Below, piece by piece: positions 1,754-32,000 of a stretch of DNA of 32,000 nucleotides; position 1 is the stretch's first letter, and every line of letters begins with the position of its first letter. A program made the translations under genes and the position numbers. The stretch is from Candidatus Saccharimonadota bacterium (GTDB lineage Bacteria; Patescibacteriota; Gracilibacteria; BD1-5; UBA2023). Under the pieces are notes generated by a model. That model ran no database searches, was not told where the DNA came from, and saw only the letters and a list, made by a program, of their open reading frames with translations. The stretch is from NCBI GenBank assembly GCA_963706795.1, contig OY970170.1, positions 540,001 through 572,000 of the forward strand, given 5' to 3'.

Positions 1754-1887
1754 ATATCTTGTATAGACCAAAAGCCAAAAAACGCAAGCATGGCCGGGTA
1801 ATTGACTTTTCCGTACTTTCAGTACGATGAATCAAATCCAAGAATCGAAATCGCCTTCGGGGCGCCACTACTCATAAAAATAATTTC

Positions 1888-3420: not shown

Positions 3421-3429
3421 TATACGTTT

Positions 3430-4206
3430 ATGTATCCAGAGATCATACTTCCATTTTTAGACATCAAGATATTTACCTTCGGACTGGCGCTTTCGCTAGC
3501 ATTCGGACTTTTCTTCTTCATGCTCTACAAGCTCTCCGTCAAGACAGGAATTAATTCAAATTTCTTCTTCGGAAGTGCATTGCCGCTTGTCCTCTCAACA
3601 TTTATATTTGCACGACTTGTATTCATTTTCTCACAGTGGCGAGATTACAAATATCTCGTAACAGACCGCTTCCTCCATTTCTTTTTAATGAATGATTATA
3701 ATCTCTCATTCATTGGAGGGGTGATTGGATTTGTCCTGGTTCTCGGCTACAAGCTCATTCGCTTTAATCAGCCACAAGAAAAATATGTCGATACAGTGGT
3801 TCTTGCCTTTTTGTTTGCGGCAGTGATCGGATATATTGGTGCATTCCTCGGCGGTCAGATTTATGGTCGACCAACCGAACTTGCAATCGGGATCGTCTAC
3901 AAATACGAAAATGCTAATGTTCCCTATACATCGGCGATCATTCCTCTTGCTGTTTTCTATTCGATTGGATGTTTCTTTCTATTCTCAGGACTCTATATTC
4001 TCCGCGAGATATTTAAGATAGATGGATTTGTCGGATATATTGGAATTGCCTTCTTTTCACTTATGCTCCTCGTTTGAGAATTTTTCTCAGGCTCGGATGA
4101 TATTCTCAGTAACACACTCTATCTTAATTTCACCCAGATTGGCGCGCTCTTGGGTCTGATTTTTGCTATCAGATGACTCCTGCGTCTTTCAAAAAAACAC
4201 TCCTAG
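3430..4206 (+). CDS. lgt: prolipoprotein diacylglyceryl transferase-like membrane protein
   Basis: Polytopic membrane protein. The segment GAFLGGQIYGRPTELAIGIVY resembles the Lgt G-x-x-x-G-R-P-T core. Two in-frame TGA lie near the 3' end, and it stops at TAG 4204-4206. The assignment rests on a motif only. Confidence 0.55.
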
Positions 4207-5654
4207 GAAAGGGAATATACTTCTCCGTTTTTAGTATCTGCTTGCTCCTGTCGATCGGGTGTATTACTAGCTGATTTTACTACGGAGTGATATGACTCGC
4301 ATGTATTGTTCTCAGTATGTTCTGAGTACGATGAATGCGAGTTTTATGATCTTTAGCACTCTTCTGAGTATTTTTAGGAAGCGGTATTTCCTTGTATTTT
4401 AGCCATCAATACGAACAGGATCGAAGCGAGCTTATAGCTCTTTTAAGTGAAAAAAATACCCATCAAGCAGAAGTTATCTCCATTCGCTGAGACAGAAATG
4501 GACAACTTCGACTCATGCTTAAAATCATATATTGATCAAAAGAATACTTCTTCGAATCATCCTTTACCAGCGGACTGAAGATTATTCCTTGAAGTATTCT
4601 CACCCTCGAAAAGCTCACCCGCAAACGCGAATCTCTCGAATATCTCTATTCACAAGGTCTTCTTGCTAGTTTGCAATGAAATATCACAGATATTCTTGCC
4701 CCTCAAGTCATTTCACCATTCGCACGGATTCGATCGGGCGTCAATACTGGACTCATTGCCATCCTTCCAGAGAATGAAGCTGCACTTGCCGCAGGCATGC
4801 TCGTCTGAGAAAAATCCCTCTTCAGTGATACACTCTATGCTGGCTACCAACGCATTGGACTCTCTCATCTCATCGTCGTAAGTGGGAGTAATATCGCTCT
4901 TGTTCTCATTACTCTTCTCGTCTTTACGAGATGGATGTGACGAAATATTCGCTTACCGTTACTTATAGCGCTCACTGTAGGGTACATCATTTTAGTTGGC
5001 GGGGATGCACCCGTAATACGAGCTGGTATCATGGGTCTCATTGCATACAGCTTTGTCGAATTTGGCAATCGTGTCGATGCAGTAAGAACCTTACTCTTTG
5101 CTTCGGTGATTCTTTGTATTATCTCACCCTATAGTTTGCTCTATGATGCAGGATTTCAACTCTCGGCACTCGCGACTCTGGGGCTTATTTGTGCGAGTCC
5201 GGATATCAAGAGATTTCTGGATTGGATACGTACTCCAAAGTGGCTTGGTGAAATTATCGCGACGAGCATGGCTGCTTCTCTTTTTACACTTCCCATTACA
5301 CTTTCGATTTTTGGTTCGACACATATGGCGAGTATTCTCGCCAATATCGTCATCGCACCATTTGTAGGGATATCACTCATTGGATGAGTGATTGCACTTA
5401 TTGCCAGCATAATCTGACATGGAATAGGCTATGCGCTCGGTTATATCGGATTTTGGCCCATCTACCTCTGTAATACCATCGCTCTTTGGTTTTCAGATTT
5501 CCCCTGACAGGTCACCCTTCCGCTCGGAGAATGGCGAATTTGGGTAGGAATGATCTTTTGATCGATAGATATACTCTGGATTCTCTTTTTTCTTGTTTCT
5601 AGAATTCCTCCAATTTCGTCCGTCGCAAACGCTTCTCAACCTCATCCAGGATAA
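4173..5654 (+). CDS. comEC: DNA internalization competence protein ComEC/Rec2 (competence domain only, ~493 aa)
   Basis: ATG at 4173 overlaps lgt by 34 nt. The frame is open through many TGA. Motifs are GLSHLIVVSGSNIALV, APVIRAGIMGLIAY and DAGFQLSALATLGLI. It stops at TAA 5652-5654. No C-terminal metallo-beta-lactamase domain is present. Confidence 0.8.
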
Positions 5655-6267
5655 ATCGGGTATAGGCTTCGGATTTTTTTGTTTCAATAATAAATCCTGC
5701 CTCTGACAGGAATATCTCAAAAAAGCGTGCCATTGCTACAATAATCTCGTTTCTCAGTGGTGAATCCAACTGCGTAATGAGCTTCTTGGTAAGCAAAACC
5801 GAAATATTGCTTGTCAGGGACGAAAAAAGAATTTCTACCCAGAGATTGATGTAGCTTCTTTCATCGTCACTGAGGAGTTTTTCATCAAAGTGCACAGGAA
5901 TATCGCGCTTTTGAGGTACTGGTATTTTTACAGCGAGCGAAAGATGATCCGCGAGTGCTCGAAGTCCTTTATCAAATGAGATTGCCGAAAAAGCAAGCAC
6001 AGCAATAGAGGGGACATCATTTTTAAGCAAAAAGAGGAGTCCATCTACCACATGATCATATTTTGCGTCTTTGAGCAGCTCAATCAAAATTCCCGCAAGC
6101 ACATCTGAGTGCTTACGAGCTCTTGATTCGTCTTTTCGGGATTTTTGAATACCAGCTAGGGCCTTACTCGAGCGTTCACGTTGTTTTTCACTCGATTCCT
6201 TCGGACCTTCGGAAGGTCCTTCTGGAGCACCTGTGTCGCCAGTATCAAAATTGTCTAAACTGTCCAT
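5599..6267 (-). CDS. hypothetical protein, 222 aa
   Basis: The ORF is uninterrupted. It has a charged, disordered N-terminus (DTGDTGAPEGPSEGPKESSEKQRERSSK) followed by a helical body. Its ATG overlaps the glyA stop by 13 nt, and its 3' end overlaps the convergent comEC 3' end by 56 nt. I recognised no motif. Confidence 0.6.
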   Translation of the reverse strand: MDSLDNFDTGDTGAPEGPSEGPKESSEKQRERSSKALAGIQKSRKDESRARKHSDVLAGILIELLKDAKYDHVVDGLLFLLKNDVPSIAVLAFSAISFDKGLRALADHLSLAVKIPVPQKRDIPVHFDEKLLSDDERSYINLWVEILFSSLTSNISVLLTKKLITQLDSPLRNEIIVAMARFFEIFLSEAGFIIETKKSEAYTRFILDEVEKRLRRTKLEEF

Positions 6268-7499
6268 AAATCTTTGTCCAAATAGATAGGAAACTCTTTA
6301 CAGAGAGTTCGAATTTGATTTTTGAGTGTATTTTGTATCTGTATATCTCATGGATGCGAAAGTGCTTCGTGCATAATATCAGCGAGTATTTGCATTTCAT
6401 TTTCAGTCATTCCGCGCGTGGTAACTGCGGGTGTTCCTACGCGAATCCCCGATGGATCCATAGGTTTACGTTCATCAAACGGAATCATATTCTTGTTCAC
6501 AGAAATTCCAATATTCTCAAGAATGATTTCTGCTTCTTTGCCTCCCAAATTATAGCTCTTTGCTACATCTAAAAGTAATAGATGATTGTCCGTGCCTCCA
6601 GAAACAACACGCACGCCATGCTTTATGAGTGCATTCGCGAGAGATTGTGCATTCGTAATTACTTGCTTCGCATAGGTTTTAAATTCAGGCTTTAGTGCTT
6701 CTCAAAATGCGATCGCCTTGGCAGCAATCGTATGTTCGTGTGGGCCTCACTGACATCCAGGAAATACAGCACGGGCAATATCTGCGCCGTAGCGTTCTTT
6801 TGAGAGAATAATCGCACCCCGTGGTCATCTCAGTGTCTTGTGCGTCGTAGTCGTAACTACATCACAATACGGAACTGGATTTTGAAGCACTCCAGCCGCC
6901 ACAAGTCCGGCAATATGTGCCATATCAGCTACCAGATATGCACCTACTTCGTCTGCAATCGCACGGAATCCTGCCCAATCAAGATCACGAGAATATGCAG
7001 AAAATCCCGTGACGATCATCTTTGGTTTGAATTCTCTTGCCAACTTTGCCACTTCTGCCATATCGATCAATTCCGTCACCGGATCGACTCCATAAAATTC
7101 AAAAGTATAGAGCTGTCCTGAAACACTCAGTTTATGACCATGCGTCAGATGTCCACCATGATCGAGTCGAAGCGAGAGTATTTTATCTCATGGAACCAAG
7201 AGTGCACTATATACAGCAAGATTCGCGGGAGAGCCTGAGAGTGGCTGAACATTTGCATATTCTGCACCAAAGAGTTCTTTAGCGAGATCGATCGCCTTAT
7301 TTTCTATGAGGTCGATATATTTCTGACCGGCATAGTAACGCTTTCATGGGTATCCTTCAGAATACTTATTAGTGAGTATCGATGCGTTCGCTCGGAGAAC
7401 ATCAACAGAGACATAATTTTCACTGGCAATGAGCTCGATTTCTTCTTCTTGGCGTATACGTTCTTGGTCTATAAGTTTGAATATTTCATCTCGAATCAT
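6255..7499 (-). CDS. glyA: serine hydroxymethyltransferase
   Basis: ATG at 7499. Motifs are [35 protein letters not shown] (PLP lysine region) and [12 protein letters not shown]. It has six in-frame TGA, stops at TAG 6255-6257 and gives 414 aa. Confidence 0.93.
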
Positions 7500-9556: not shown

Positions 9557-10930
9557 ATGAGATACTTTCAGGTCGTCGCCGCCAAAAACAACGAGCGCGT
9601 CGAACTCGTTGTAAAGTACGAAACCGAGCACGAGGCACGGGAGAGTTTGCATGCGCAAGGCTACTCCATTATCGAAATACGAGAAACTAATGCCGATACC
9701 GAAAAACGAACGGGATCGATTTTTTATTTTGATGTCCGTATTTCTGGGCAGAAAAAAAGCGGACAGATTTCTTCGGATGATATATTCCGAGCTTATAAAA
9801 AACTCGTAGATGATCTTGGTTATGAGGTCCTTGCCATCTATACAACTAAAGATGCCAATGACGAAGAGAAAATTTTTACAACGAGCAAAGTTCGAGAAAG
9901 TTACGCTGCATATGCACAAGTAAAAAAAGAATCTGCACCAGCAAAAGAAATCCCACAGACTCAAGAACAAAAAAAAGAGAAAGATAATCACCAGATTCTT
10001 GAGATCGATACCGTTCTCGGTCGTGAAATAGCGAGATATCAAGGATTGATCATGCGCGTCTACGAAAAAATTGAAAATATTCTCGTAACCTATGCGACTG
10101 AGATTTCAGAAGAACGAAAGCTCAAACTCCAAAATCTTCTTGGAAGTCTCAGACAGATCAGACAGATAACTAATATCGATAAACTCAAGCTCATTGGTGA
10201 GGCTTCGCTCATAAAAATTGGAGAACTCGAGATGGAGCTTGCAGGAAGTCGTTCTGATATCAAACGCTCTGATTTTCTGAAAGATACGAATAAGCTCCTG
10301 AAGAATTTTTGATCAAGTAAAAAGATTGGTTCGGAAACCGATGAATTTAAGGCAAAGCTCAAATTTATTTTTACGTCGCTCATCGAGGATTTTAATACGA
10401 AGGCAGATGCTTCTGATGAGGCTAAAAAATCGGCCGTAGATACATCCGGGTATGTCTATTATAAAAATCTCAGAGAGCTTGGAATTTACAAAGAAAAACT
10501 CCGAGAACTCAATAGGGAAATTCTCAAATCATTCTTCGCTCCAGTCGAAAAAAAGAATCGTCTTGCCCTCAAAAAGCGACTCCTTATTCAAAATATCTCG
10601 CTCATCCAAAATCGCATTGAGAGCAAGAAATTCTCATATACACGGATTGTAAAAGGCTTCGAGTACTACGAAGATGTACTCTTCTATGTGCTGCGATCTA
10701 CCTCTGATTTTGTACTCTATGTACTCTTATTTGTGGGTGTATTTTTGATTATGCGAGATGCACTTACTCCATTTGTAAATGTTGGTGGAGATATTGGTGA
10801 AATTCTCTTGCTACTGACTCTTTTGTCATATTTCGCACTCCTTTTTAATGGAGTTCGTACGCTCTTTGCAACAGGAATGGCCACGACTATCTTTGCCTGT
10901 ATTGTACTGGCTCTCGAAATTAATTTTTAA
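9557..10930 (+). CDS. hypothetical coiled-coil membrane protein with two PilC/GspF-N-terminus-like modules, 457 aa
   Basis: Track ORFs 9557-10312 and 10688-10930 share one frame across TGA 10310-10312, with no TAA/TAG between them. It has two N-terminal ~45-aa modules (MRYFQVVAAKNNERVELVVKYETEHEARESLHAQGYSIIEIRE and SIFYFDVRISGQKKSGQISSDDIFRAYKKLVDDLGYEVLAIY). These are followed by a long K/E-rich coiled coil and hydrophobic C-terminal helices. Confidence 0.6.
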
Positions 10931-10932
10931 AA

Positions 10933-12153
10933 GTGTTTGTACTCTTCTTTCTCGTTCATATTTTTTTTGCAGGAGCCTTTTTTTTGTTGAATGCTTATGT
11001 AGAAGCAGGTGGGTTTGTACTTTTGGGGATTATTTCACTCTTTTTGTTTGGTCCTTTCCGTTTTTGAAGTGCTTCAGGACAGTCTGAAGACCAAAAAGAT
11101 GCAGCAAGTCAGCTCGATAATATCAGATCAAAGCTCAAAGAGCAGACAATTTCGTTTTTTAAACGCGGTATATTTCCCCTCTCAGTAGGGCTTTTTTATA
11201 TTGCGATTTTTGGAATAGTTTGGAGTCTTTCAGGAACGCTCCATATAGCATTGTCAGCTTTTGCACATGATCTCGCAATTGTGGTATCTTTGCTTTTAAT
11301 TGTCGCATTTTTTACTCCGCTGAGAGAAAAATCTATTCTCTTAGAGCTTGGTCGTGCCAATATTCTCGTGCTTTCACTCCTCGAATGAGGCATGCTCGTG
11401 AATCATCTTTTTTCTGCAGAAATTCCGTCATTTCATTTGATTATCGCGGTATTCATCCTGATTGCCGCCATCGTGGTCACATTTATTGAAGAATATCGCA
11501 GATCGGCTGCATTTTCACACTCATTTCTACTTTTTTTCTTTATATTTGTTTACCTCTTCTCGACTCTACTCTTTTTGAGTGGTTCATGATTTGAAGAGGG
11601 AATTTGGGTATATTGCATGATGGCAATCGTGCTCTGAACAGGCTTTTTTGAGATCGTTTCAAATAAAATATTCAGAGAATGTAGGATATTTGTCAGGCTT
11701 TTTTCTATATTATTTGTATATGCCTGAACCATTGGCCTCATTGGCCTCTATACTTTTTGACTTGTGGGTCAAGGGGTGATTGTACTCTTGCTTCTCTCGT
11801 TTTTTTTCAATGTGTATGTTCATCAACGATTTGAAAATTATCTCAGTCTCCTCTTTTGTTTGCTCGTTCCGATTGCTATTTTTGAACGTATTTTTGGAAT
11901 ATCAGAAAACTTCTTCTTAACCCTAATTTCGTGAGGGGTTCTCTCCTTTGGGCTCGTTTTTGGTTCGTTTATGCTCAAAAGTTCGCATAAATTTGATGAA
12001 TATTTTTTCCAGGCAACTGCTATTATTGCGGCACTTATACACTTCGCAGCATTCGGGATTGTATATGGTATGATGGGGCTTTTGTATTTTTCTATACTTT
12101 TGCTCTTTTTTTCGGCGTTGCTTTTTGTAAGCTATCTCCGTATTGCTAAATAA
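10933..12153 (+). CDS. hypothetical polytopic integral membrane protein (~406 aa)
   Basis: The frame is open from 10924 to TAA 12151-12153 and passes through seven TGA. There is no in-frame ATG before 11392, so I propose GTG 10933 as the start, but this is uncertain. The protein is highly hydrophobic and Phe/Leu-rich with many predicted helices. Confidence 0.55.
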
Positions 12154-19762: not shown

Positions 19763-20010
19763 ATTTCCGAAGCCCCTATTTATAGGGAAACCCCGCTTTG
19801 TGAAAAAAGTGTGAAGAGACCTGCATTGCGTTTGACTTCACTCCGTTCTTCATATAATTCGAGGCACGGAAAGGTAGCTGCAAATCTCCTTTTCACGTTC
19901 GTTAACACTCTTATACTCTTTCGCTTGTTCAAAAGTGAAAGGGGTATGTTGTTTACAACGTGCAAGTTTTTTTGAACTCCAAACTTTCCCTTCTAGTAGC
20001 TAGATTTTAC

Positions 20011-20052
20011 GAGAGGACGTGGTTTTTGTATATACAAAGGTCGCGTCCTCTC
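20011..20052 (+). promoter_or_regulatory. 42-nt imperfect hairpin with central 14-nt palindrome upstream of the S-layer gene
   Basis: GAGAGGACG (20011-20019) pairs with CGTCCTCTC (20044-20052). The interior contains the perfect palindrome TTTGTATATACAAA. No U-run follows on either strand. A TATAAT hexamer lies at 20099-20104, and the S-layer ATG is at 20201. Confidence 0.4.
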
Positions 20053-20200
20053 GTTATGTCAAAACTAACAGAGGTTAAAGCTTTAACTTCCCAGGAAGTA
20101 TAATCCTGGACGTACTACTGTCTGTAATACTGAGAATCGGCAAATCTCTCTAGAACATTCGAGGAAATACGGTTTTTACATTTAACTTATAGTTATTCCT

Positions 20201-23200
20201 ATGAGTACTCTTCTCAAGAAGGTTACTTCAACGGTAAGCGTTCTTTCGATCGCTGTAGCTGCTGTTAGCTCAACGCTTACAGTTTCTGCTGCATCTGAAT
20301 TTGCTGCTTCTGCTGAATTAGTCGCTCAGGCTGGTATTATTAATACTCAAGCAACTGAAGCCGGATACCGTCTCGGTGATAATATCACACGTGCGGAAAT
20401 GGCAAAAATCGCTGTTAAGCTCTCAGGGAGCGAAGCAGGAAGCTGTGCAGGTAATGTCTACTCAGATGTTACTTCAAAGCTTGGTGATCTCTGTGGATTT
20501 ATTGAAGCTGCGGCTGACGCTGGTATTGTCTCAAAGGCAAATGCTAAGTTCCGCCCTTCTGACCTCGTAACTCGAGCAGAAATGGTAAAGATGCTCCTCG
20601 CTGCCAGTGGAGTAGCTCCTACTGATGTTTCTGCTGGATTCTCTGACGTTTCTGCATCTCTTGGTGACCTTGCCGGGTACATCAATGCAGGAGTTGAAGA
20701 GGGTTGCGTTAAGGCAGGTGCAACATTCCGACCTAATGCTACTTCCACTCGTGGTGAAGCATTCAAGGTTACGGCTTGTGTAGCTGGTCTTACTGACACT
20801 ACTCCTACTACTCCACCTACTACTGGTACTGGAACTACAACTCCTCCTACTACTGGTACAGGTACTACTGTTCCTCCAGTTGTGATTGCAACAGGTGACC
20901 TCACGGCTACCCTCAATCCTGCAACTCCGGCTGCGACAACTCTTCCTACTGGTTCTGCTTACAACAAGGTTCTCGCTGTAGATCTTACAGCTGGTTCTGC
21001 TGATGCTGCAGTTACAGGTTTCGAAGTTACACGTACTGGTCTCATCTCTAACACAAACATCTCTGGTGTTTCTGCTTGGGTTGACGGTGCACGTCTCGGA
21101 AATGTAGTTCAGTCTCTCTCTGCTGATGGTAAGGCTACCGTTTCTTTCGGTAACACTCCACTCACTATTAAGGCTGGCACAACAAAGACAATTACTTTCG
21201 CGGTTAATATCCGTTCTGGAAATTATTCTGGTACAGTTGGTCTTACTCTCTCAAAGGTAATTGCAGGTGGTACTGTTACTGGTACTCCAGTTACATCTAA
21301 CACTCACTCAGTAGTTGATGGTTCTTCTTCACTCGTTTCATACGATGTTGGTTCTATCGCTGTTGGTGGTGTTGCTACTTCTATTGGAGCTTCTGCTCCA
21401 GTGAGTCCTACTCTTCTCGACATTGGTCAGACGACTGAAGTTGCTAAGGTTAAGATTACACACAACAACTCTAAGGAAGATCTCTCTATTGAAGGTATGA
21501 ATATCTTCATTGATGGATCAGTTTCAGACTCTGACCTCTCTGGTTTCGAAGTTTGGTCTCAGGAAGGTACGAAGCTCGCTTCAGCTGATGTTGCTAGCGG
21601 ACGCTACGTAAACTTCAAGTTTGCTACTCCTTACGTTATTGCTCAGGGTGGTACTCGCTACATGACTATTAAGGCTACTGTAGCTACTGGTAAGTACAAT
21701 TCAGGACGAAACTTCTCAGTTCGCATCCGTGATGATTTCGATATCGTTGCACGTGGTGTTACTACTGGAACATACATCCTCCCAAACAATCCTAACACTC
21801 TTCTCGGTAACCAGTACTGGTTCGGGATTAATGCAGGTAACCTCACTATCTCTAAGGCTACAGATTCTCGCAGCCAGAACATCGGTGCTAACGCAGACGA
21901 TCTCGTTCTCGCTACATTTGACGTAAAGGCTTCAGGTGAAGATATTGAAGTTCAGAAGGTTAACTTCTGTGTTACTAAGGCAAGTGGTGCAGTTGACCTC
22001 CGCGGAACTATTAAGATTACCGCTGGTGGACAGACTGTATTCTCTACAGATGCTTCTAATGTTAATAACTATGGAACTGTCCCTTGTACTGGTGGAAACA
22101 CTGGATACCTCAGTTCATACGTAACAATCAAGGCTGGTACTACTGCTAAGTTCAACGTTATTGCATCTACTTCTTCTTCAGCTGTTGCTGCAAGTTCGTA
22201 CGTTGCTTCAATCTTCAACTTCTCATACAAGCTCACTTCTTCTAACACTATTACAAACAGCACATCAGTTTACACTGGTAATACACTCGCTGTTGAAGCT
22301 ACAACTCTCACTGTTTCTGCAAACGGAGCGTTCAATCCTTCAAATATTGTTAAGGGACAGAGCCAGGCTAAGATTGGTTCATTCAACATCCAGGCATCTA
22401 ATGCTGACGATGTAAACGTAAACACTGTTATCGTAAACGTTGCTGCTACAGGTGGTCTCACTGGTATCAACAATCTTACACTTAAGTCTGGTGCTAAGCA
22501 GCTCGGAAATGTTATCTCAAATCCTGCCGCTACTGGAAACTCATTCTCAGTAAATTCTGGTGACCTCAAGGTTGCTAAGAACTCTACTGTTACTATTGAC
22601 GTATACGCTGACATTACTTCTGCTGTTACTGCAACTGCTATCTCTGTTAATATCGGTACAAACGGTGTTACAGGTGTTGGTGCTACTAACTCAGTAAGTC
22701 TTTCAGCTCCAGTTTCATCTGTTGGTGCTGTTGCACTCACAGTAGTTGGAAATGGTTCACTCACTATTGCTAGTGACTCTCTTACTCCAGGTAAGCAGAT
22801 TCTTACTGCTGGTCTTACTAACAAGGAAGTTTTCCGCTTCCAGGTTAAGGCTGACAACAAAGAAGATCTCCGCCTCGACAAGATTACTCTCGGAAGTTAC
22901 TCTACTGGTACGACCGTTACAGATCTTGGTAAGAACTTCCTCAATGTTAAGATCTACGACGGAGCAACTCAGCTCGGTGGTTCAGTTACATTCGTAGGTG
23001 GTGCTGCTAAGTTCACTGGACTCGGTTATGTTGTACCTAAGGGTGCTAACAAGACTCTCTCAGTTCGTGTTGATACTGCAACTTCAGGTGTTCTCGAGAA
23101 TGCAGCAACTGTTCTTCTTACTCCAACACAGGTAGAATATACTGGTGTTGCAGGTGGACAGCTCTCTGCTCTTGCTGCTCCTTCAGGTGTAGCTATCTCT

Positions 23201-23701
23201 AACAGCATGCTCCTCCAGGATGTTAAGGTTGTCCTCGCGTCAACTATGGCATCTCCAGCATCTAAGACAGTAGGATCTACAAACCAAGATATTGGTGCGT
23301 ATACACTTACTGCTGACGGTGTTCGTGATATCACTGTAACATCTCTCAAGGTGAAGCTCTCTGGTAGCGCGTTCTCTGGTTCTGCTGTTTCTAACGTACG
23401 TCTCCGATACAACAATACTGACTACGTTGGTACACTCTCTGGTTCTGTTGTAACATTCTCAACTCCGATCAATGTTACTTCAGGAAGCGCTATTAGTTTC
23501 ACAGTTCGTGCTGATACATCTGCTATTTCTGCAGGTGCTAACTCAACACTTACTCTCGGAACTTCTATCGAAGGTGTTTCTGGAATTGTAGATCCTACAA
23601 ACTCAGTTACATACAGCTATACAGACGTAAATGGTAACCCATTCACTGGCGTTACAACTTCTGACAGCTATCCAGTTGCAGGTGCAGTTCTTAGCTACTA
23701 A
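20201..23701 (+). CDS. S-layer-type surface protein: signal peptide, three SLH domains, Thr/Pro linker, six tandem ~155-aa beta-rich modules (1166 aa)
   Basis: Single uninterrupted ORF. The signal peptide is MSTLLKKVTSTVSVLSIAVAAVSSTLTVSA|ASE. SLH motifs are YSDVTSKLGDLCGFIEAAADAGIVSKANAKFRPSDLVTRAEMVKML, FSDVSASLGDLAGYINAGVEEGCVKAGATFRPNATSTRGEAF and a degenerate first copy. The body is Thr/Ser/Gly/Val-rich. A strong intrinsic terminator follows. Codon bias is strongly T-ending and there is no TGA codon. Confidence 0.8.
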   Translation: MSTLLKKVTSTVSVLSIAVAAVSSTLTVSAASEFAASAELVAQAGIINTQATEAGYRLGDNITRAEMAKIAVKLSGSEAGSCAGNVYSDVTSKLGDLCGFIEAAADAGIVSKANAKFRPSDLVTRAEMVKMLLAASGVAPTDVSAGFSDVSASLGDLAGYINAGVEEGCVKAGATFRPNATSTRGEAFKVTACVAGLTDTTPTTPPTTGTGTTTPPTTGTGTTVPPVVIATGDLTATLNPATPAATTLPTGSAYNKVLAVDLTAGSADAAVTGFEVTRTGLISNTNISGVSAWVDGARLGNVVQSLSADGKATVSFGNTPLTIKAGTTKTITFAVNIRSGNYSGTVGLTLSKVIAGGTVTGTPVTSNTHSVVDGSSSLVSYDVGSIAVGGVATSIGASAPVSPTLLDIGQTTEVAKVKITHNNSKEDLSIEGMNIFIDGSVSDSDLSGFEVWSQEGTKLASADVASGRYVNFKFATPYVIAQGGTRYMTIKATVATGKYNSGRNFSVRIRDDFDIVARGVTTGTYILPNNPNTLLGNQYWFGINAGNLTISKATDSRSQNIGANADDLVLATFDVKASGEDIEVQKVNFCVTKASGAVDLRGTIKITAGGQTVFSTDASNVNNYGTVPCTGGNTGYLSSYVTIKAGTTAKFNVIASTSSSAVAASSYVASIFNFSYKLTSSNTITNSTSVYTGNTLAVEATTLTVSANGAFNPSNIVKGQSQAKIGSFNIQASNADDVNVNTVIVNVAATGGLTGINNLTLKSGAKQLGNVISNPAATGNSFSVNSGDLKVAKNSTVTIDVYADITSAVTATAISVNIGTNGVTGVGATNSVSLSAPVSSVGAVALTVVGNGSLTIASDSLTPGKQILTAGLTNKEVFRFQVKADNKEDLRLDKITLGSYSTGTTVTDLGKNFLNVKIYDGATQLGGSVTFVGGAAKFTGLGYVVPKGANKTLSVRVDTATSGVLENAATVLLTPTQVEYTGVAGGQLSALAAPSGVAISNSMLLQDVKVVLASTMASPASKTVGSTNQDIGAYTLTADGVRDITVTSLKVKLSGSAFSGSAVSNVRLRYNNTDYVGTLSGSVVTFSTPINVTSGSAISFTVRADTSAISAGANSTLTLGTSIEGVSGIVDPTNSVTYSYTDVNGNPFTGVTTSDSYPVAGAVLSY
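20810..20869 (+). repeat. 2 x 30-nt tandem repeat encoding the TPPTTGTGTT linker
   Basis: Positions 20810-20839 and 20840-20869 both encode TPPTTGTGTT, with a few synonymous differences. The repeat lies between the SLH region and the modular body. Confidence 0.8.
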
Positions 23702-23732
23702 TTCTTAGTAGTCGAGTCTCAGCTCAGCTAAC

Positions 23733-23768
23733 AAAAAATCCCCTCCTGCAAAGGAGGGGATTTTTTTT
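23733..23768 (+). terminator. rho-independent terminator of the S-layer gene
   Basis: The stem ATCCCCTCC (23738-23746) pairs with GGAGGGGAT (23753-23761) around the loop TGCAAA. It is followed by T8 (23761-23768) and preceded by an A6 tract. It lies 32 nt after the stop codon. Confidence 0.88.
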
Positions 23769-23903
23769 GTTGGTTTTTTTCTGATCTTTTTCCGTCTTTT
23801 TCGTTCAAATGAGAAGTAAACTGGTTTAGTTATTTTTTAATATTTTGAAATACAGTAATCAGTTATTTTTGAATTTTCTATTCGTTTTTTTAAATATATA
23901 TTT

Positions 23904-25313
23904 ATGTCTTTGTCTTCTAAGTTGTCTATCGTTTCTCTAAAACGAATCCTCTTTTGTCTGAGTCTTCTAATCGGTATTTCTATCAGTGATCAGATCGCAC
24001 TTGCGGCCCCACTTTGTCCGGACGATTACATCTCTATACGACCAACCCCACCTACTGACTCTTGATACTATGCTATATTTAATGATGTACCTTGAAATGC
24101 AACGTCACTTGTATGAATCTACGAAGGAGATAGTAAGGCAAAGGATATTGCATACTTTAATAAACTGAGCTGAGTAGTTTGTTATAAAATTATAGATCGC
24201 ATTAATTTTCAGGGGCTTGGATATAGTTGGAATGGCACCGTATGGACATATGTACGCGCTGAGTGATCGACGGGTGGAGCTAAATACGATTTTAAGAACT
24301 CAAGCCTTGTTGCGCCTGTCGTCAAAACCATGACCTGATCCAACTTTATTTTGCCAACCAATTCAGGTTCAATTAGCCTTACGCTATCTGGGATTACAGA
24401 TCCTGACGAATGACAGACACTTAGTTATAAATACCAATGGAACTGAACTGGGGGTGCGTGGATAAATTCTGGACTCACTAGTACAACGCCTAAATTAAAT
24501 TGAGTCGAAACCATATCAGTCTTTGGCGGATATCCAAATTTGCCCGAGGGTAGCAACACTCTGTATGTTCAAATTAGTGATTCTGAGCAGTACTCAAATA
24601 TATACTCAGTATTCTTTATAAAAGCTGTTAACAATCCGTTGATGACAGTTGTAAATCCAGATGCTAATTATGCAACATCCAAAACTGTAACGCTAACAGG
24701 AACATATCTAAATAATTTTACGCTGAGTTATAATATTAGTACATCGTCTATTTGTGATAAGAGTGGTGTTTTTACGCCGTATGCACCAGTTGTAATTAAA
24801 TCTACTTCAGATAATGGAAAATATGTTTGTTTTCGTGCAATGGATAGCTTCTGAAATGCTTTATATACAGTCTCAGATAAGGTCACATGAATAGTTACTG
24901 GTCGTGATAGCACCTCAAAGACTTCACCAGTTAAAAATTCTGACCTCTTTGCAAATTACTCTGAATGGTACAAAGGTTCGCTGCGGGATTATGACCCAAT
25001 TTTCATCCTTGTTAAGTCACAAGTCTCACAGTCAACTAATCTATCCTATACATGAAGTACTTTTAGTTATCCAAACCTTATTACCGATATAAATGGAGAT
25101 GGTCTTCCTGATCTCATAGTAACTAATTTCTCTATACGCCCAGAACCATACATGGTTAATGGGCAACAATTTATAGATTATAGTTATACAAACTCATACG
25201 GTTTGTTGCTTAACAGGGGAAATATGGATTATGAAGTAACATACAGATGTGTTCGCTACCAATCAAGCATTTATACGGGGAACAATGGCTACTACGGTGA
25301 CTGTGCTCAATAA
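23904..25313 (+). CDS. secreted Ig-like repeat / FG-GAP (VCBS)-motif protein, 469 aa
   Basis: ATG at 23904. The frame was checked codon by codon and contains 12 in-frame TGA and no TAA/TAG until 25311. The signal peptide is MSLSSKLSIVSLKRILFCLSLLIGISISDQIALA|AP. Two Ig/PKD-like segments are present (ITDPDEGQTLSYKYQWNG and KYVCFRAMDSFGNALYTVSDKV). One FG-GAP/VCBS-type motif is present (ITDINGDGLPDLIVTNF). Confidence 0.65.
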
Positions 25314-25355
25314 AAGAGCATGTCTTGACCTTATACCCAGTTACCATTTACCGTC

Positions 25356-28300
25356 ATGAAGAGTTTATTTTCTGTCATACTCCTATGACTCTTTTATGCT
25401 GCCTGTACGCCGCTTTGAGTAAGTGCAGATACTCAGGGTGGTGCGGGTTCGCAAGCTGCGCAAACGAAGCAATGAATTGATAAAAACAGTTCGTCATTTC
25501 AAAATGACCTCTTTTCGGGGGTTGCCGCATATTCCTATGATTTTGTCTTTCCGGCGGGACAACGAGGGCTCACTCCAAAGCTTGGGGTGAGCTATAACTC
25601 AGCAACGACTGATTCGCTCGCAGATGCTGGATACGGATTTTCGCTCGGAGTTTCGTCTATTTTCCGAGCTACACGCAAGGGGAATGACAAACTCTATACG
25701 CTCAATGAATTCGCTATAAACGCGGATTTTGGAAGCAACGAACTGCTTGAAACTGGTTCAGGAGTCTATATGGGTAAAAACAACAATGATCTTACTCAAT
25801 ATGGCTTCGCAGATGAAGCATGGACTGTTCGCGACAATCAGTGAAATACATATGTATTTTGAGGAAGCGATGTCTACCGACAAATCAATCCAGACAACAG
25901 CAAGACTTTTCGCTGGCTACTACGGGAGAAGCGGGATGCTTTTGGGCACAAAATCGCCTACGAATACGACAAAAAGGATAACAATATCTATCTTTCAAAG
26001 ATCTCATACGGCTTTTTCGGAGCTAATCCGCTCTATACGATACAAATCAACTACCTCGAGCGTACATTTTCGGCGCTGAGTTATATCTATGGCTTCAAGC
26101 TCGAAAATCATAGGCTTGTAAGTTCGATCGTTGGTAGTGTGTGTGATACGCAACCATGTCGAGAAATCAAACGATATGCGCTCAATTACAGCGACATCGA
26201 AACTGCCTTCCCAAAGCTTGTGACTATCTCTGAGAGTGCGGGAAGTCTTTCAAAGCCAGATAATTCCTTTGAATATTACAAAGACGGTATTGGGGTGAAT
26301 CTTCTGAAGACCATTCATAATGGGCGAGGAGGCGATATTGGACTCGAGTACAAATCTTCTACTGCGTACAAAAATACGACTGTACCGTTTGTCATTAAAA
26401 CACTCTATAAGGTCAGCTTTATAGATAGCGTAACAGGACTAAAAAACACAAAAACCTATGACTATATTGGTGGAAATTTTTACTTTGATCCCACCAATAT
26501 CTTTCAACGTGGCTACACGGGATTTAGCAAGGTGCGCATTATCTCGGACAACGGCACCTACACAGAGGATTCATTCCATCAATCGGAATCGGATTCCAAT
26601 AATGTACAAAATGCGACCCTCGGTGAGTTTGATGATCACATCAGCAAAAAAGGGAAAATCTACCGAGAAGAAAATTTTGATGCAAGTGGAAGCGTATACA
26701 CTTCACGTATTACTAAGTGGGTCAAAAGTGCCCGTGGAAACGGTGCATTCTTCGTATATCCAGAACAAAAGACGAACATCCTCTGGAATGGTAGTGGATC
26801 TCATCTAGATAGCGCGGAGAGCTTTGTATATGATAGGCTTGCTAATACGACGCACCATACATCGTATGGGCTCGTCACTGCAAATACGAGCAATGGAAGC
26901 TTCACGGATATTCCTGGTGATACTATCAACGAGGATGTGAGCTATGCTACGGACGATACAAATATTTTTGTTTCGCTTCCGTGCAGGTCATATAGCACAG
27001 ATATCAATTGAAAGGTCTATAACGACATTCGTTATACCTACGATACACTGGCAAATTGTCGTGTTACATCAGGGCTTCTCTCAAAAAAAGAGCAATCTTT
27101 TGCTGAAGAATCGCGCTTGATCGGTGAATCATACACCTACAACACAGGCTGACTCATGAGCCAAAAAACCGATCCACTCGGCAACACTACAAAATATGAG
27201 TACGACGCATACTGACTCTTTCCGATTACGGTCACCAATGCCAAGGGCTTTATTAATAGATTAAGCTACGACTATGGTATCCAGGCGCCCGTACTCTCGA
27301 CGGATCCAAATGGCGTAAAAAGCAAATCCGTCTATGACGCATTTGGACGCATGCTCGAACAGAGACTCATTGATACAAATGGTGCCGAGGTGCTGCTGAG
27401 TAAAAATCGTATCAGTGATGCTACGTCACCAAATTATGTTGAACAAACCCTTATCTTTGATGGCACGTCCTCAAAAGTAAGCCGAAGCCACTTCGATGGA
27501 TTTGGTAAGCAGATCGAAACAAAAACTTCCTCAAAGGATTCGAATGTCTTCTCGACAGCAAAGCAACGCTATGACACAGAATGAAATACCGTCTTTGCGA
27601 CACATGAGAGATTTGAGCCATCGCTCGACTATACTCCGATCGATGCGAGTGAACTTGGTAATACATTTACCTTTGACGCGCTCAATCGACTCTCGAGTCA
27701 GATCAACAAAGATGGGAAAACATCGTTTTCGTATGCCCTCCTTAAGACAACCGCCACCAACCAAAATAATATTCCAAAGTCATTTACCAAGGATATATTT
27801 GGCAATCTTGTCCAAGTTGACGAAGTTGCCTCGGGTAACACTTTTGTTACAAAATATGAATACCTCCAAGGCAACAAACTTGCCCGCATGACGGATGCAA
27901 AAAATAATACCCGAAGTCTGAGCTATGACAGTCTCGGTCGACTTACAAAAATGGAGGATTTACATGCCCAGAGCAATCTTACGCCTAAGTCGGTAACGCT
28001 CACCTATAATGATAATTCCCAGATCGCATCAAGAACATGACTCTCTGGTGAAAAAATCAGTTATACCTACGACTCTCTCGGGCGAGCCACCCAAGAAAAT
28101 GTCGCAGGGAAGATTGTGATATATGAGTATGATACAGGCTCGTATGGTCTCTGACGACTGAGCAAATTCACCAAAGATGGCTACGCAGAAAGCTATGCCT
28201 ACGATGCATTTGGGAGAAAGTCACAGGAGCAAAAAATATATTCTGACAAGACATACTCTCTCGGATATACCTATGCTACTGATGGCAGCGTACTGACCAT

Positions 28301-30140
28301 AACATATGACGATGGCAGCAAGGTAAATTACAGCTACCAAAACGGATATCTAGGTGCGATGAACTATGCTGGAAAGCCGATCCTGAATAATATCATCTAC
28401 GCAGATAACAATACCGCAAAACGCTACGAATATGCCAATGGTGTAACCACCGAAGATACACTCGACTACACCCATGGATACCGAATCATAGCTCGCAAGG
28501 CAACGTCAGGAAGTGGTATGCTTCAAAATCTGAGCTATGGCTTTGATACGCTCGGAAATATCACAGATATCAATGATGCTGCGGATACCATTCTCAAGAA
28601 GCAGAGTCATTTTGTCTATGACGACATTGGACGACTCGTAAATGCAAGCTTCACCAACACGGGTGGAACAAATGCCTATAGTTACGCATATGACGCGATA
28701 GGGAATATTACGAGCCAATCTGGCGTTGGGAACTATCTCTATGATGGCATCTATCCACATGCAGTAACTGCTGTAGGTGGTTCGCCACTTGCGTATGACA
28801 ACAATGGAAATGTCTCTCGCGAAGGATCAGGAATGCTCGTGAAAACATATGTATATAGTCCAAAACAAGAGCTCTTAAGCTCTCATAGTCCATCAAGCGA
28901 TGCTCAGTATCTCTACGATGCCTCTGCTGTACGAGTGCGAAAAGATAGTGTATCTGCTAATTCACAGTCGAGCACGAACTATGTTGGAGATGTCTACGAA
29001 GAACAAACTACCAAGCTCCTCAACGCGAGCGGGGCAGTTACGAGCACAAAAATTCTCCGTACCAAATATCTCTTTGCTGGTGGTATCAAGATCGCGAGTG
29101 TTCTCACGACTGATGGCGGACCAGAAAATATCACGTACCACCTCAGTGACCACCTTGGAGGTGCGAGCATAGATATTTCGCAGAGTTGAGCAGTTCTGCA
29201 ATATGCGGATTATCTGCCATATGGTGCTAATCGTATCCTCTCTCGTACTGGTAACTACAAAAATGCCTATCTCTTCACAGGCAAGGAAAAAGATGACGAG
29301 AGCGATCTTCAGTATTTTGAAGCGCGCTACTACTCTCCAACAAATGGACGATTCTATTCGCAGGACCGAGTTTTTTGGGAGATTGGACAAACTAAACGAG
29401 GACTTGGTACCTTGTCTGATCCACAGAAACTCAATGCATATTCTTATGCACGAAATAATCCGATTGTGTATAGTGATCCTACGGGAGAATACGATACGTC
29501 TGATTTTCAGCAAGCACTTAACGTGTGATGGGCTAATCTAAAAGATGGTGCTACACAGGTAACAAATCAAGTACAGCAAAAGGCAGATCAGGCAGCAACA
29601 ATGGCTGTTGATGTTTTGCATACAGTTGCAAGTATGATGCCAGATTCCCGACAAGTATGACAGTGACTCGTGTCAGCTGGAGGTGCAGTAGCAGCCTATA
29701 CAGGTCCAGCCTGTGCAGCTTCCGTGCAGATTAGTGGTGGTTGTGCGCTCGTTTGACTCGCTTGATGATGAATTCCTACTCTGGCTTGTACGCCACTCGC
29801 AGCGTCTGCTGGTGGTATATGTGGAGCTACTGCTGCTGGTATATGAGTTGCTGGTGTGGGTAACTATATGATGAGTCAGGGTGGAGGTAGTAATAACCAA
29901 AATCCTTCAAAATCTTCAGGAAAACCTCAGTATAAAGATACAAAGTCTTGATTAAGTTGAAAAGAAGGTGCAAAAGACACTCCAAGTTGGGCGAAATGAG
30001 AAAGACCATATGTTTGAGAATCATGAAAAGACTATGCAAAAAGATTGCTTGATTGAAAATTTGGACCATGAAACTACAGAACTTGACCAGAAAGTGATTT
30101 TAGTAAGATTAAAAAATATGGGGATCGTAACTTTAAATAA
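25356..30140 (+). CDS. SpvB-N / RHS (YD-repeat) polymorphic toxin, TcB-TcC-like, with signal peptide and variable C-terminal toxin tip (1594 aa)
   Basis: One frame was verified from 25356 to TAA 30138-30140 with 28 in-frame TGA. An alternative upstream ATG exists at 25320. The signal peptide is MKSLFSVILLGLFYAACTPLGVSA|D, and it contains a lipobox-like YAAC. An SpvB/TcaC N-terminal signature is present (GVAAYSYDFVFPAGQRGLTPKLGVSYNS ... FRWLLREKRDAFGHKIAYEYD). There are many YD repeats (YTYDSLGR, YAYDAFGR, FVYDDIGRL, YAYDAIGNIT, LAYDNNGNV). The Rhs core end reads ARYYSPTNGRFYSQD ... NAYSYARNNPIVYSDPTGE at 29475-29489, followed by a 216-aa tip. Confidence 0.9.
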
Positions 30141-30141
30141 T

Positions 30142-30552
30142 ATGAAAGTCATTTTTCTGCTCAAACACACTAATTATACAAATTTTGATGGCAAAAATAT
30201 AGGCTATTTCTCGTCTTACGAAAAAGCTCGGTCTGCGTGTTTGACTGTATCACATCAATTAGGCTTTCGAGATTATCCAAATGACTTTGAGATCATTTGT
30301 GTACCACTTTATCATCAAAAAGATCAACTACCTAAGCATGCATATGAACTGGTTAAATCAACAGAATTGGATGATGTAGAAAAAACGTATTATCTTGGAA
30401 TATTTTGAAAACGTGTAGATGCTGAGCGACACAAAAAAGGGATTTTAAAAGAGAAAAAATCCCAACTTGGTGTATATCGCATAGAAATTGATCGAATCTA
30501 CTGGGAGGAAGGATTTATCAGTGTGGAAGAAGCATCGAGTGAGTTTTTGTAA
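30142..30552 (+). CDS. putative cognate immunity protein, 136 aa
   Basis: The ATG lies 1 nt after the toxin stop. Translation begins MKVIFLLKHTNYTNFDGKNIGYFSSYEKARSACLTVSHQLGFRDYPNDFEIICVPLY. It has one in-frame TGA (30406-30408) and stops at TAA 30550-30552. The role is inferred from its position directly after an Rhs toxin tip; I recognised no family. Confidence 0.55.
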
Positions 30553-30566
30553 GGATATTACGTTTA

Positions 30567-30863
30567 ATGGCATTTATGAAAATTTCTCTAAATAGTAGAA
30601 TTCTTTGCTGTAGTGTACTCTTGATAATCGGCCATTTTTTCCTCTATGACCAACTGACAGTATTAACCGATACTCAAATGCGAGAAGTCGCTGATATGAA
30701 TGTAATAAACAACTGAGGCAGTATAAGGCCTCAGTTGTTAGAAGTAGAAGAATGAATCTCCGGCAGCAAAATTTTCACTTATATCATCTCGTATCACAGA
30801 TATACAAGACAGACTATCGAAGTCGATAGAAAGTGATACTGTGACACATCGGCCATTTACTAG
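30567..30863 (+). CDS. small hypothetical protein with N-terminal hydrophobic anchor, 98 aa
   Basis: Translation begins MAFMKISLNSRILCCSVLLIIGHFFLY. It has three in-frame TGA and stops at TAG 30861-30863. It contains a perfect 12-bp inverted repeat, which lowers confidence that it is coding. Confidence 0.35.
30708..30739. repeat. perfect 12-bp inverted repeat (hairpin, 8-nt loop)
   Basis: AACAACTGAGGC (30708-30719) is the exact reverse complement of GCCTCAGTTGTT (30728-30739). No U-run follows. Confidence 0.75.
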
Positions 30864-30870
30864 ATACTGC

Positions 30871-31227
30871 ATGAAAACCTATTTTTCTGATATTAAAGGT
30901 GTCCTCAAGATTTATCTAATAGAGCGATTTGTTTACGCTCTCTGGCTTATGTTTGTTCCTGGCCCAGGATCTATGACGCGATTACCATACTTTTCATTTC
31001 TCGAATCATTTTTTTGATATAACTACTCTCCAATAATCGCTCTCATCTCAAGCATAATCGTTATTCCCACTTTATTTTGGTTATACGAAAAGTTTCTAAA
31101 GAAAACCATTGCATTGTCGTATAGAACCTTATATATCTTAATTGGATACATAGCTTTCCTTCATCTATTTTTATACCTACATAGGGCATTTTTTGGATGC
31201 ATATCGTATTGTCTAGCCTTCCATTAA
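30871..31227 (+). CDS. small hydrophobic membrane protein, 118 aa (possible immunity protein)
   Basis: ATG at 30871, 7 nt after the previous stop. Hydrophobic segments are FVYALWLMFVPGP, IIALISSIIVIPTLFWL and LYILIGYIAFLHLFLYL. It has one in-frame TGA and stops at TAA 31225-31227. Confidence 0.45.
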
Positions 31228-31242
31228 AAATCCTCAACAACT

Positions 31243-32000
31243 ATGTCATATCTCGGACTTTCATTTTTCTCAAAGAGTGAGTATATTACCATACCTCAGG
31301 ATAACTATCACATATATACAAAGCTCTTTAGTAACTGTTTTTGAGCTATTAAAGTGCCCGATGTACGAACTCGGGGATACGGTCAAGATAATTTCTTGAA
31401 CATTTGGCTAACGACTGGTCCAAGTCTTCCAATAAATAGGGAGGCTTGGGAGTGATTTATGGAACTTCTCGAGTGAGATCATTCAATAGTACCTTGATTT
31501 CAACTCAGAGATGCAGTCATGATTGGTCACATAGATTGGGAACACTATTTGGTGCTTGAATCGCCATTAAATATTGAACAAATAACAAAGAACCAGTCAT
31601 TCATAGAATTTGTTTATCTACCAAATAAACAAGCATCTAGCATTTGAGGTATTTTTGATTTGGCGCAAGACGATATCATGCGTGATATTATTCAGGGCAA
31701 ATACGGTGCTTTATTTCTTGGTTTAAAGTCCTATCCAATACCGAGCTTTACATGCCCATGCTGCGGATTTATAACCCTCCATGAGGATCATCATGTATAC
31801 GAAATATGTGAAGTCTGTGACTGGGAAGATGATCCAGTGCAATTTGAATTCCCTGATTCTCCATCTTGAGCTAATAAGTGATCCCTTCGACAGAATCAAA
31901 ATTCTTTTCTTTCCACCCAATTTTCCGATCAGGAAAACTATCTTGGTTATTTAAAGGACAAAAATTGGAAACCTCTTTCTCCAACTAGTGCACCGAAAGA
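31243..32000 (+). CDS. CPCC-family cysteine-rich domain protein (3' end beyond window)
   Basis: ATG at 31243. The frame is open to the window end through seven TGA. Residues FTCPCCGFITLHEDHHVYEICEVCDWEDDPVQFEFPDSPSGANKGSL match the Cys-rich CPCC domain pattern (CPCCG ... EIC.VC.WEDD ... GAN). The N-terminal ~140 aa are unassigned. Confidence 0.7.

Follow-up and report, generated by a model that had tools for sequence, protein, structure and literature searches.

Among the handful of devices known to encapsulate proteins is the Tc/RHS cocoon, whose opening is currently explained by a model built around its propeller gate. The beta-propeller of TcB closes the cocoon and acts as the TcA-docking and gating element; it is reportedly this part to which TcA docks (Gatsogiannis 2018, cited in PMC7861908). 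In Bacillus subtilis, WapA is a Sec-dependent, wall-associated YD/RHS toxin, for which WapI provides immunity. The TcdB/TcaC class, which occurs in many phyla and is accompanied by immunity genes, combines a signal peptide, an SpvB region, an integrin-like beta-propeller, RHS repeats and a C-terminal toxin (Zhang et al. 2012, PMC3482391). Here, a related locus is described from a 32,000-nucleotide (nt) stretch of a gracilibacterial genome (assembly GCA_963706795.1, contig OY970170.1, positions 540,001 to 572,000), the whole of which is called the window below. The locus comprises g2, which encodes a secreted partner protein, the gene of an RHS protein, and d1, a probable immunity gene. The RHS protein is devoid of the TcB beta-propeller. 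It seems fairly probable that the three genes form a Sec-exported antibacterial polymorphic toxin operon, in which the partner supplies the missing propeller function in trans.

An earlier note, made from the sequence of this DNA, had put the locus forward as an undescribed system. That claim did not survive: the succession of signal peptide, SpvB, RHS and toxin is that of the TcdB/TcaC class (PMC3482391), and as this class was defined in 2012, the general architecture is not new.

An RHS protein without the TcB beta-propeller

Searches with hidden Markov models bore out the domain calls of the earlier note (SLH, SpvB, RHS and others), with FG-GAP found below threshold only. The signal peptides, the variable tip behind the Rhs core and the downstream immunity gene that it had described are all present as well. 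Pfam recognises RHS_repeat (81.1 bits), SpvB (37.3) and TcdB_toxin_midN (36.2) in the RHS protein, and NCBIfam adds the Rhs core (TIGR03696, 63.9 bits with a cut-off of 32.5) and TIGR01643 (57.9 bits). When a profile of the N-terminus was searched against the PDB, it matched YenB (6.9e-15), TcdB2-TccC3 (1.5e-13) and the SpvB N-domain (4.8e-12). The very N-terminus (MKSLFSVILLGLFYAACTPLGVSA, then DT) is of the signal type, with a hydrophobic core at residues 15-28, as judged from sequence reading and hydropathy without a dedicated predictor; relatives of the protein carry equivalent signal-type N-termini. The motif PIVYSDPTGE (residues 1381-1390) marks the end of the Rhs core, just before the toxin. 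Relatives P0001-P0007 are 38-46% identical in the search and up to 49% in BLASTP, and their alignments cover all but the tip. Indeed, the alignments to five relatives end at residues 1389-1390, beyond which the tips are unrelated.

The loss of the propeller becomes apparent in the comparison with two related proteins that have one, P0010 and P0014. Residues 53-319 of the window protein correspond to P0010 44-320 and residues 328-1390 to P0010 682-1737, in collinear order, so that the alignment leaves out residues 320-682 of P0010; residues 326-840 of P0014 are left out likewise. Six FG-GAP stretches lie in each of these skipped regions, and P0001-P0007 have none. Consistently, no FG-GAP or VCBS match was returned by Pfam for the RHS protein. 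The absent propeller thus amounts to about 360-510 residues in the RHS protein and its relatives from the candidate phyla radiation (CPR). A similar gap appears against YenB: profile positions 184-265 match YenB 162-245, and a weak third stretch, 346-426, matches YenB 707-791, which leaves ~380 YenB residues without a counterpart. The TcB/TcC-like cocoon proposed earlier is therefore upheld by the homology of the SpvB, TcdB_midN and RHS regions, but its TcB beta-propeller is deleted.

A conserved partner module beside the toxin gene

The g2 protein starts with a signal peptide (residues 1-35), which is followed by a low-confidence region, two FN3/Ig-like domains (residues ~150-325) and a C-terminal module of about 140 residues (330-469). 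Structure models were computed with AlphaFold2 (AF2) on the proxy sequences P0109 and P0059, the latter for the tip domain discussed below. The predicted local distance difference test (pLDDT) reached 95 in the FN3/Ig-like domains. Foldseek matches to fibronectin-type FN3 domains dominated the result for g2, and this search gave no information on the C-terminal module. The module holds one FG-GAP-type DxNGDGxxD loop (TDINGDGLPD), then an "LLLNKGN" strand, and two conserved cysteines, C449 and C467, which would suit an extracellular protein. Ten residues are invariant in 21 module members, namely W355, D364, D395, N397, D399, D403, Y447, C449, Y464 and C467. Many multi-repeat FG-GAP proteins align to residues 375-415 of g2, and blades of integrin alpha do so at weak scores. 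A profile search of the PDB with the module gave weak FG-GAP-loop matches only, to integrin alpha-5 and XAC2610 (E at least 0.086). As the module has a single FG-GAP unit, it would not form a propeller on its own.

In BLASTP, the module shows 35-46% identity to the protein encoded immediately upstream of each of five related RHS genes. It occurs as a stand-alone form of 168-169 residues in three loci (L002, L004, L008) and behind other domains in the window (469 residues), L006/7 (514) and L011 (604). An exhaustive search, for which the query was a table-4 translation copy of g2, found about 25 clusters, consisting of proteins of 130-175 residues or of longer FN3-bearing ones; the module was always C-terminal and always preceded by an N-terminal signal-type segment. 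A word-indexed protein search with g2 returned nothing beyond g2 itself, again as a table-4 translation, and scans with a partner profile detected seven loci in genomes and at least one in metagenomes. The minimal partners (130-175 residues) are made up of a signal peptide and the module alone. Judged by these comparisons, the Ig-like part of g2 is optional and the conserved partner is the C-terminal ~140 residues only. The earlier idea of an Ig/FG-GAP protein as the RHS partner can thus be kept for the module and not for the Ig-like part.

Partner-like genes also occur in tandem: a Doudnabacteria contig has three of them, and a Peribacteria contig two to three; such arrays lie at L015 7393-9093, L012 2744-3968 and L020 13018-13656. 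Two-module partner proteins exist, too (also P0153, P0255 and P0257). Together, the tandem arrays and two-module proteins hint that several single units could assemble.

The module is coupled to propeller-less genes. Among the loci found through the RHS protein, it accompanies all seven propeller-less genes (window, L002, L004, L006/7, L008, L019, L020) and neither of the two propeller-bearing ones (L021, L022; Fisher p ~0.03, calculated by hand). Two further loci that were found through the partner, L011 and L012, are also propeller-less and have the module gene directly upstream, which brings the propeller-less loci to nine. Where both gene ends are known, 14-42 nt separate partner and RHS gene. 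The pair is also found in Peregrinibacteria with the standard code (L019, L012). A read-through or fusion of g2 and the RHS gene was considered and rejected: in L002, L008 and L019 the two genes stand in different frames, and both proteins start with a signal peptide of their own. In the window, the two genes share a frame and are separated by TAA and two codons. From these comparisons, the conserved unit is the gene pair of partner module and RHS. The gene order proposed earlier is accordingly kept in related genomes as far as this pair is concerned, and not for the S-layer gene. As for the surroundings of the two propeller-bearing genes, prepilin-type (N_methyl) genes lie upstream of P0010 (L021 2701-4916), and a Laminin_G_3 protein without the module is encoded upstream of P0014 (L022 3292-4977).

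The partner might, alternatively, be a mere adhesin or receptor-binding accessory, or even an unrelated neighbour, and the shell might be gated by features of the RHS protein itself. This would agree with the FN3/Ig domains and the weak Laminin-G or ConA-like signals of the long variants, with the module-free Laminin_G_3 protein beside P0014, and with the internal plugs that seal the Rhs shells of type VI secretion systems (T6SS; PMC10684867). We regard it as rather unlikely, since minimal partners consist of the module only, so that the conserved function resides there, since the module has the same repeat type that the RHS protein lost, and since it accompanies propeller-less fusions only, in what is a small sample. 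Supply of the propeller function in trans remains our preferred reading: the propeller was lost and the partner was kept beside the gene, which suggests that the one makes up for the other.

Toxin tip, immunity gene and neighbouring genes

The tip consists of a linker (residues 1391-1442), a Gly/Ala-rich segment (1443-1518), a polar linker and a basic C-terminal domain of 66 residues (1541-1606). The Gly/Ala-rich segment is hydrophobic and contains one charged residue and four cysteines among its 76 residues. The basic domain, with the motif SGKEGAKDxPSWAKGERPxVGESGKDYAKRLLDxKFGxGNYxTGPxSDFSKIKKYGDRNF, is 53-69% identical to the C-termini of about 50 proteins across phyla. Its carriers are RHS proteins, WXG/LXG proteins of the type VII secretion system (T7SS) and small orphan modules, in Salmonella, Nocardia and others, and, in Pseudomonas phage records and on a Moraxella plasmid, it underlies genes that carry an Rhs-family annotation. 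It had no match in Pfam, NCBIfam, PHROG or PDB sequences. The P0059 model of the domain has two helices at pLDDT 95-98; Foldseek found no PDB fold match to it, and searches of the full-text literature for the motif were negative.

Two unrelated contexts, L016 and an Rhs orphan cassette of Salmonella (L017), have a DUF7336-family gene directly downstream of a homologue of the tip domain. The d1 gene begins with the ATG at 30142, one base past the stop codon of the RHS gene. A profile of four DUF7336-annotated neighbours matches d1 at 35.4 bits (E 1.3e-9; the best of 2000 shuffles reached 8.5) and no other open reading frame (ORF) of the window, and pairwise matches of d1 to the DUF7336 neighbour proteins were found as well. 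Relative to DUF7336 proteins, d1 carries an insertion of ~52 residues. It is soluble, having neither a hydrophobic segment nor a signal peptide, and is probably the cognate, cytoplasmic immunity protein. The 66-residue domain and DUF7336 look like a new pair of toxin and immunity families; no paper mentioning DUF7336 was found in the literature search. With d1 soluble and cytoplasmic, the 66-residue domain would have an intracellular bacterial target, for which the hydrophobic tip segment would be a likely aid in crossing the membrane. Both the immunity gene and the antibacterial proteins related to the tip likewise point to bacteria as the target.

It has to be weighed whether the tip is instead a membrane-depolarising pore former resembling Tse5 or Tse4, with the 66-residue domain as an accessory and d3 as a possible second immunity factor. 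Rhs-encapsulated pore formers do exist, such as Tse5 (PMC10684867), the 76-residue Gly/Ala-rich stretch with its single charge has comparable stretches in most homologues, and d3 is predicted to span the membrane. Yet the hydrophobic stretch is poorly conserved in comparison with the C-terminal domain, the accompanying immunity family is small, soluble and without a signal peptide, and d3 has no homologues and is not called as a gene. We therefore consider a pore-forming tip improbable and retain the basic domain as the likely toxic part.

Further downstream, only part of the earlier description holds. Three to four small genes had been described behind the toxin gene, of which d1 and d4 stand. 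Both d2 and d3 are doubtful: they have no family matches and no homologues in related loci, and the Logan gene caller does not call them. Residues 170-223 of d4 match the Pfam family Cys_rich_CPCC (PF14206, 69.7 bits), and its N-terminal 167 residues have no Pfam match. Its GC content is 0.38, compared with 0.44 for the RHS shell, and it could be a further gene of the immunity type or an orphan one. No orphan toxin or immunity remnants were detected by blastx over 30.5-32 kb. The G+C content is 0.34-0.38 in d1-d4 (window 30100-32000) and 0.42-0.45 upstream, and the Logan contig with the locus stops near window position 31,850, within d4. Low G+C and the contig end inside d4 fit a variable, exchangeable tail.

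Positions of all these features are collected in the following table.

Features of the toxin locus and its neighbourhood (window positions, except for the last two rows)
Feature	Position	Strand	Basis or remark
SLH-gene 5' leader	19763..20200	+	structured, 438 nt; neighbouring S-layer unit, not toxin system
Perfect 21-bp hairpin in leader	20009-20054
SLP, SLH-domain S-layer-type protein, 1166 aa	20201-23698 (with stop 23701)	+	Pfam SLH
Intrinsic terminator of SLH gene	23733..23766	+	15-bp stem, then T-run
g2, secreted partner, 469 aa	23904-25310 (with stop 25313)	+	AF2, Foldseek, sub-threshold FG-GAP
g2 FN3/Ig-like domains	24351-24878
g2 conserved module	24891-25310
RHS gene, 1606 or 1594 aa	ATG 25320 or 25356 (M13) to 30137 (with stop 30140)	+	Pfam, NCBIfam, PDB profile
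RHS signal peptide	25356-25427
SpvB-like region	25497-26276
Site of missing propeller	26274-26303		aa 319-328
TcdB_midN	26295-26573
RHS shell	26574-29210
Rhs core	29211-29486
PIVYSDPTGE	29460-29489
Variable toxin tip, aa 1391-1606	29490..30137	+	homology to relatives stops at aa 1390
Gly/Ala-rich tip segment	29646-29873
Basic C-terminal domain	29940-30137
d1, 136 aa	30142-30549 (with stop 30552)	+	DUF7336-like, probable immunity
d2, 98 aa	30567-30860	+	doubtful ORF, N-terminal hydrophobic segment
d3, 118 aa	30871-31224 (with stop 31227)	+	doubtful ORF, several hydrophobic segments
d4, at least 252 aa, runs past window end	31243 to beyond 32000	+	Cys_rich_CPCC
Tip domain-DUF7336 locus	L016 4001-4831
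Tip domain-DUF7336 locus	L017 4001-4787

Upstream of g2 lies the gene of SLP, an S-layer-type protein that combines a signal peptide and three SLH motifs with a Thr/Pro linker and a long, beta-rich stretch. Its N-terminus is hydrophobic and of the signal type by hydropathy, Pfam SLH scores 46.4 bits (cut-off 20.8), and three TRAE/TRGE motifs are found at residues 63, 124 and 183, with a spacing of ~60 residues. The 438-nt leader of the gene has a minimum free energy of -131.6 kcal/mol, compared with -97.3 +/- 5.1 in shuffles (z = -6.76), and matches no Rfam family; its hairpin may be an mRNA-stabilising or processing element. Among the 121 glycine codons of the gene, 84 are GGT and none is TGA. 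An own leader, a terminator and GGT-rich codons without TGA characterise a highly expressed single-gene unit, and SLP is an independent, probably highly expressed neighbour of the toxin locus. For a self-assembly of SLP into a surface lattice, the signs are indirect ones of expression, so such a lattice may be suspected only. On the minus strand opposite the SLH gene, a stop-free ORF of 1128 codons under code 25 extends over 20321-23704, which most likely results from the extreme codon bias of that gene. In the Gracilibacteria contig L006, a gene at 1358-5455, some 3 kb upstream from the partner and RHS genes, encodes a 1366-aa secreted protein with many 'DG.YIYY' repeats that is not homologous to SLP.

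Along the lines of the earlier note, SLP, g2, the RHS protein and the tail might be united in one surface-displayed island, in which the cocoon would sit on or in the S-layer and act against the host or prey of an epibiotic predator. All genes lie on the same strand, all products have signal peptides, the window encodes no other delivery system, and relatives with the same code are epibionts or predators, including Vampirococcus with its fibrous surface (PMC8080830). SLP was rejected as a part of the toxin system, nonetheless, and the single island is quite unlikely. A strong terminator, whose stem has six GC pairs, and a gap of 205 nt separate SLP from g2, and BLASTP found no SLP homologue in the flanks of any of eight related RHS loci, where a response regulator, murA and methyltransferases are among the upstream neighbours. 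Pfam recognised no SLH domain and no other wall-binding domain in either g2 or the RHS protein. Furthermore, the toxin domain and the immunity family also occur in Salmonella Rhs loci of the T6SS type, and the same domain is found on actinobacterial WXG/LXG proteins, which speaks for interbacterial competition; Rhs and SpvB proteins go unmentioned in the genome paper on Vampirococcus (PMC8080830). The preferred unit is thus g2, the RHS gene and d1, without the S-layer gene.

The remainder of the window is of a different kind. Upstream of 19.8 kb, housekeeping genes prevail (era, rny, glyA, an S41 peptidase gene, pepA, uvrA, ddl, murB and rluB), and from 19,763 onward every gene is on the plus strand. 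The other ORFs of the window, some scanned with Pfam and some identified by reading, are housekeeping genes or without Pfam match. Three of these may be mentioned. A 457-aa ORF (9557-10927, plus strand) has a coiled coil and C-terminal membrane segments by eye and no Pfam match; the ORF at 10924-12150 (plus strand) encodes a multi-pass membrane protein with no confident assignment; and the ORF at 5602-6297 (minus strand) encodes a 222-aa acidic protein, again without Pfam match. In agreement with the earlier note, no PAAR, VgrG, LXG/WXG or TcA-like genes, and no genes of T6SS or T7SS, turned up in the window, where some ORFs were checked with Pfam and others by sequence reading.

The genetic code is code 25, in which TGA encodes glycine, as the earlier note had assumed and as derived here from ORF content and an alignment of SHMT. 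With TGA read as sense, ORFs of 150 aa or more contain 20,454 residues instead of 6,115, and of the six TGA codons of glyA, the SHMT gene, five stand opposite conserved glycines of PDB 3pgy. The share of TGA among glycine codons is uneven: it is 0/121 in the SLH gene, 36/309 in nine housekeeping genes, 12/122 in the RHS shell, 12/40 in g2 and 16/35 in the toxin tip. Tip and shell differ at a Fisher p of 7.7e-6, and the conserved 66-residue domain holds eight of the tip's TGA codons. This unevenness may reflect the expression level, or it may be a barrier to toxin expression in standard-code cells.

Proposed mechanism and comparison with known systems

In the operon that we favour, the RHS protein and g2 would both be exported by Sec. 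The Rhs core would cleave off the tip, which would stay within the shell, and the partner module would bind the shell where the propeller has been vacated, or close by, as a cap, a gate or a docking piece. Optional N-terminal FN3 or lectin-like domains of the partner might add adhesion or target recognition. Contact with another bacterium would then lead to release of the tip; the uncharged Gly/Ala-rich segment would enter the target membrane, and the small basic domain would be carried to its cytoplasmic target. The basic domain would be neutralised by d1 inside the producer and its kin. The polymorphic-toxin core of this scheme is firm; what we infer is the delivery route and the part that the partner plays, be it cap, gate or dock. 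An attack device against a host or prey had been suggested for the locus earlier. The immunity gene and the relatives of the tip imply the bacterial target that this suggestion requires, but the sequence does not separate hosts or prey from competitors.

Several points weigh against this reading. The FG-GAP assignment of the g2 module falls below the Pfam thresholds (FG-GAP 19.4-20.8 bits with a cut-off of 22.1; FG-GAP_3 21.9 with a cut-off of 26.9), and the confidence of AF2 in the module is moderate (pLDDT 73-79). Binding between partner and RHS protein is deduced from sequence linkage, the co-occurrence was observed in a sample of nine loci versus two, and in L020 the partner is located downstream of the RHS gene instead of upstream. 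The Asp-protease motif of the core is a variant, in which 15 residues separate DPQK from DPTG, as compared with DPxG-18-DPxG. The tip matched no family or fold, so its toxicity is derived only from position and association, and the Pfam model of DUF7336 (PF24024) does not report d1, even after removal of the insertion. Finally, TcA was searched for in the window and in the flanks of the relatives, so that a TcA or another delivery partner could lie elsewhere in the ~1.27-Mb genome.

That last point, together with the homology of the SpvB and TcdB_midN regions to YenB and TcdB2, would suit a canonical ABC (Tc) toxin of which the locus is the BC part, with a eukaryotic target and its TcA gene elsewhere, which is nonetheless most improbable, as the propeller that docks TcA is absent, the annotations of the 5-10 kb around the related loci studied contain no TcA-type domain, the adjacent immunity gene and the antibacterial tip relatives favour a bacterial target, and genomes in this group are small.

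Returning to the operon with a partner in trans, a more far-reaching version can be conceived, which we consider speculative and on the whole unlikely. In Gracilibacteria, Absconditabacteria and Peregrinibacteria, the TcB gate might have given way to a small protein, separately secreted and disulphide-bonded, that has just one FG-GAP unit, and opening might have become independent of TcA. The partner might form a propeller-like oligomeric ring that can detach, or it might serve as a docked cap, and the cocoon would open without TcA once the partner is displaced at the target surface. If true, this would be a minimal Sec-dependent and TcA-independent Tc-type device, used by ultrasmall epibionts against neighbouring or host bacteria.

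A lineage without the gate, but with a small FG-GAP-type protein in trans, offers a simple test of gate function, as well as a test of cocoon delivery without TcA, T6SS or T7SS. For CPR bacteria with recoded UGA, whose means of harm and competition are mostly unknown, the locus provides a concrete set of toxin, partner and immunity genes. Moreover, it draws attention to a widespread, unannotated toxin domain of 66 residues paired with DUF7336 as the likely immunity. In the literature search, no paper on Rhs or SpvB toxins in Gracilibacteria or Absconditabacteria was found, and a survey of Tc toxins counted only those TcC genes that adjoin TcA or TcB (PMC7861908).

Shell and core are homologous to the Rhs effectors of the T6SS (RhsA 7Q97, Tse5 8CP6, Vibrio Rhs 8H8A; E 1e-11 to 7e-11), which encapsulate a toxin as well, and the 66-residue domain is present in a Salmonella Rhs locus of that type. 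These effectors depend on PAAR, VgrG or a DUF6531 plug and on the T6SS, none of which occurs here. With WapA, the RHS protein shares the Sec signal, a monoderm-type envelope, the RHS shell, a polymorphic tip with immunity and the lack of a dedicated secretion machine. WapA has neither an SpvB/TcB-like N-terminus nor a conserved partner gene, whereas the RHS protein has no wall-binding domain that Pfam recognises. The TcB N-terminus, TcdB_midN and an RHS cocoon whose core encloses the toxin are common to this protein and to YenB/YenC and TcdB2-TccC3 (PDB 4IGL, 4O9X). In contrast to these BC complexes, B and C are naturally fused here, a propeller gate is missing, TcA is found neither in the window nor in the relatives' flanks, each protein has its own Sec signal, and the immunity gene implies a bacterial target. 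The RHS protein therefore resembles both WapA and Tc BC and departs from each in one defining feature, the wall-binding domain in the first case and the propeller with TcA in the second.

The closest likeness is to the TcdB/TcaC toxins, with which the locus has the signal peptide, SpvB N-terminus, RHS shell, core, variable tip and immunity gene in common. In those toxins the propeller is part of the polypeptide, whereas here it is absent and a single FG-GAP unit resides on a separate secreted protein. The code-25 CPR lineage is not among the lineages listed for the class (PMC3482391). What is new in this locus is thus the loss of the propeller, the conserved partner encoded in trans beside the gene, and a lineage that is new for the class.

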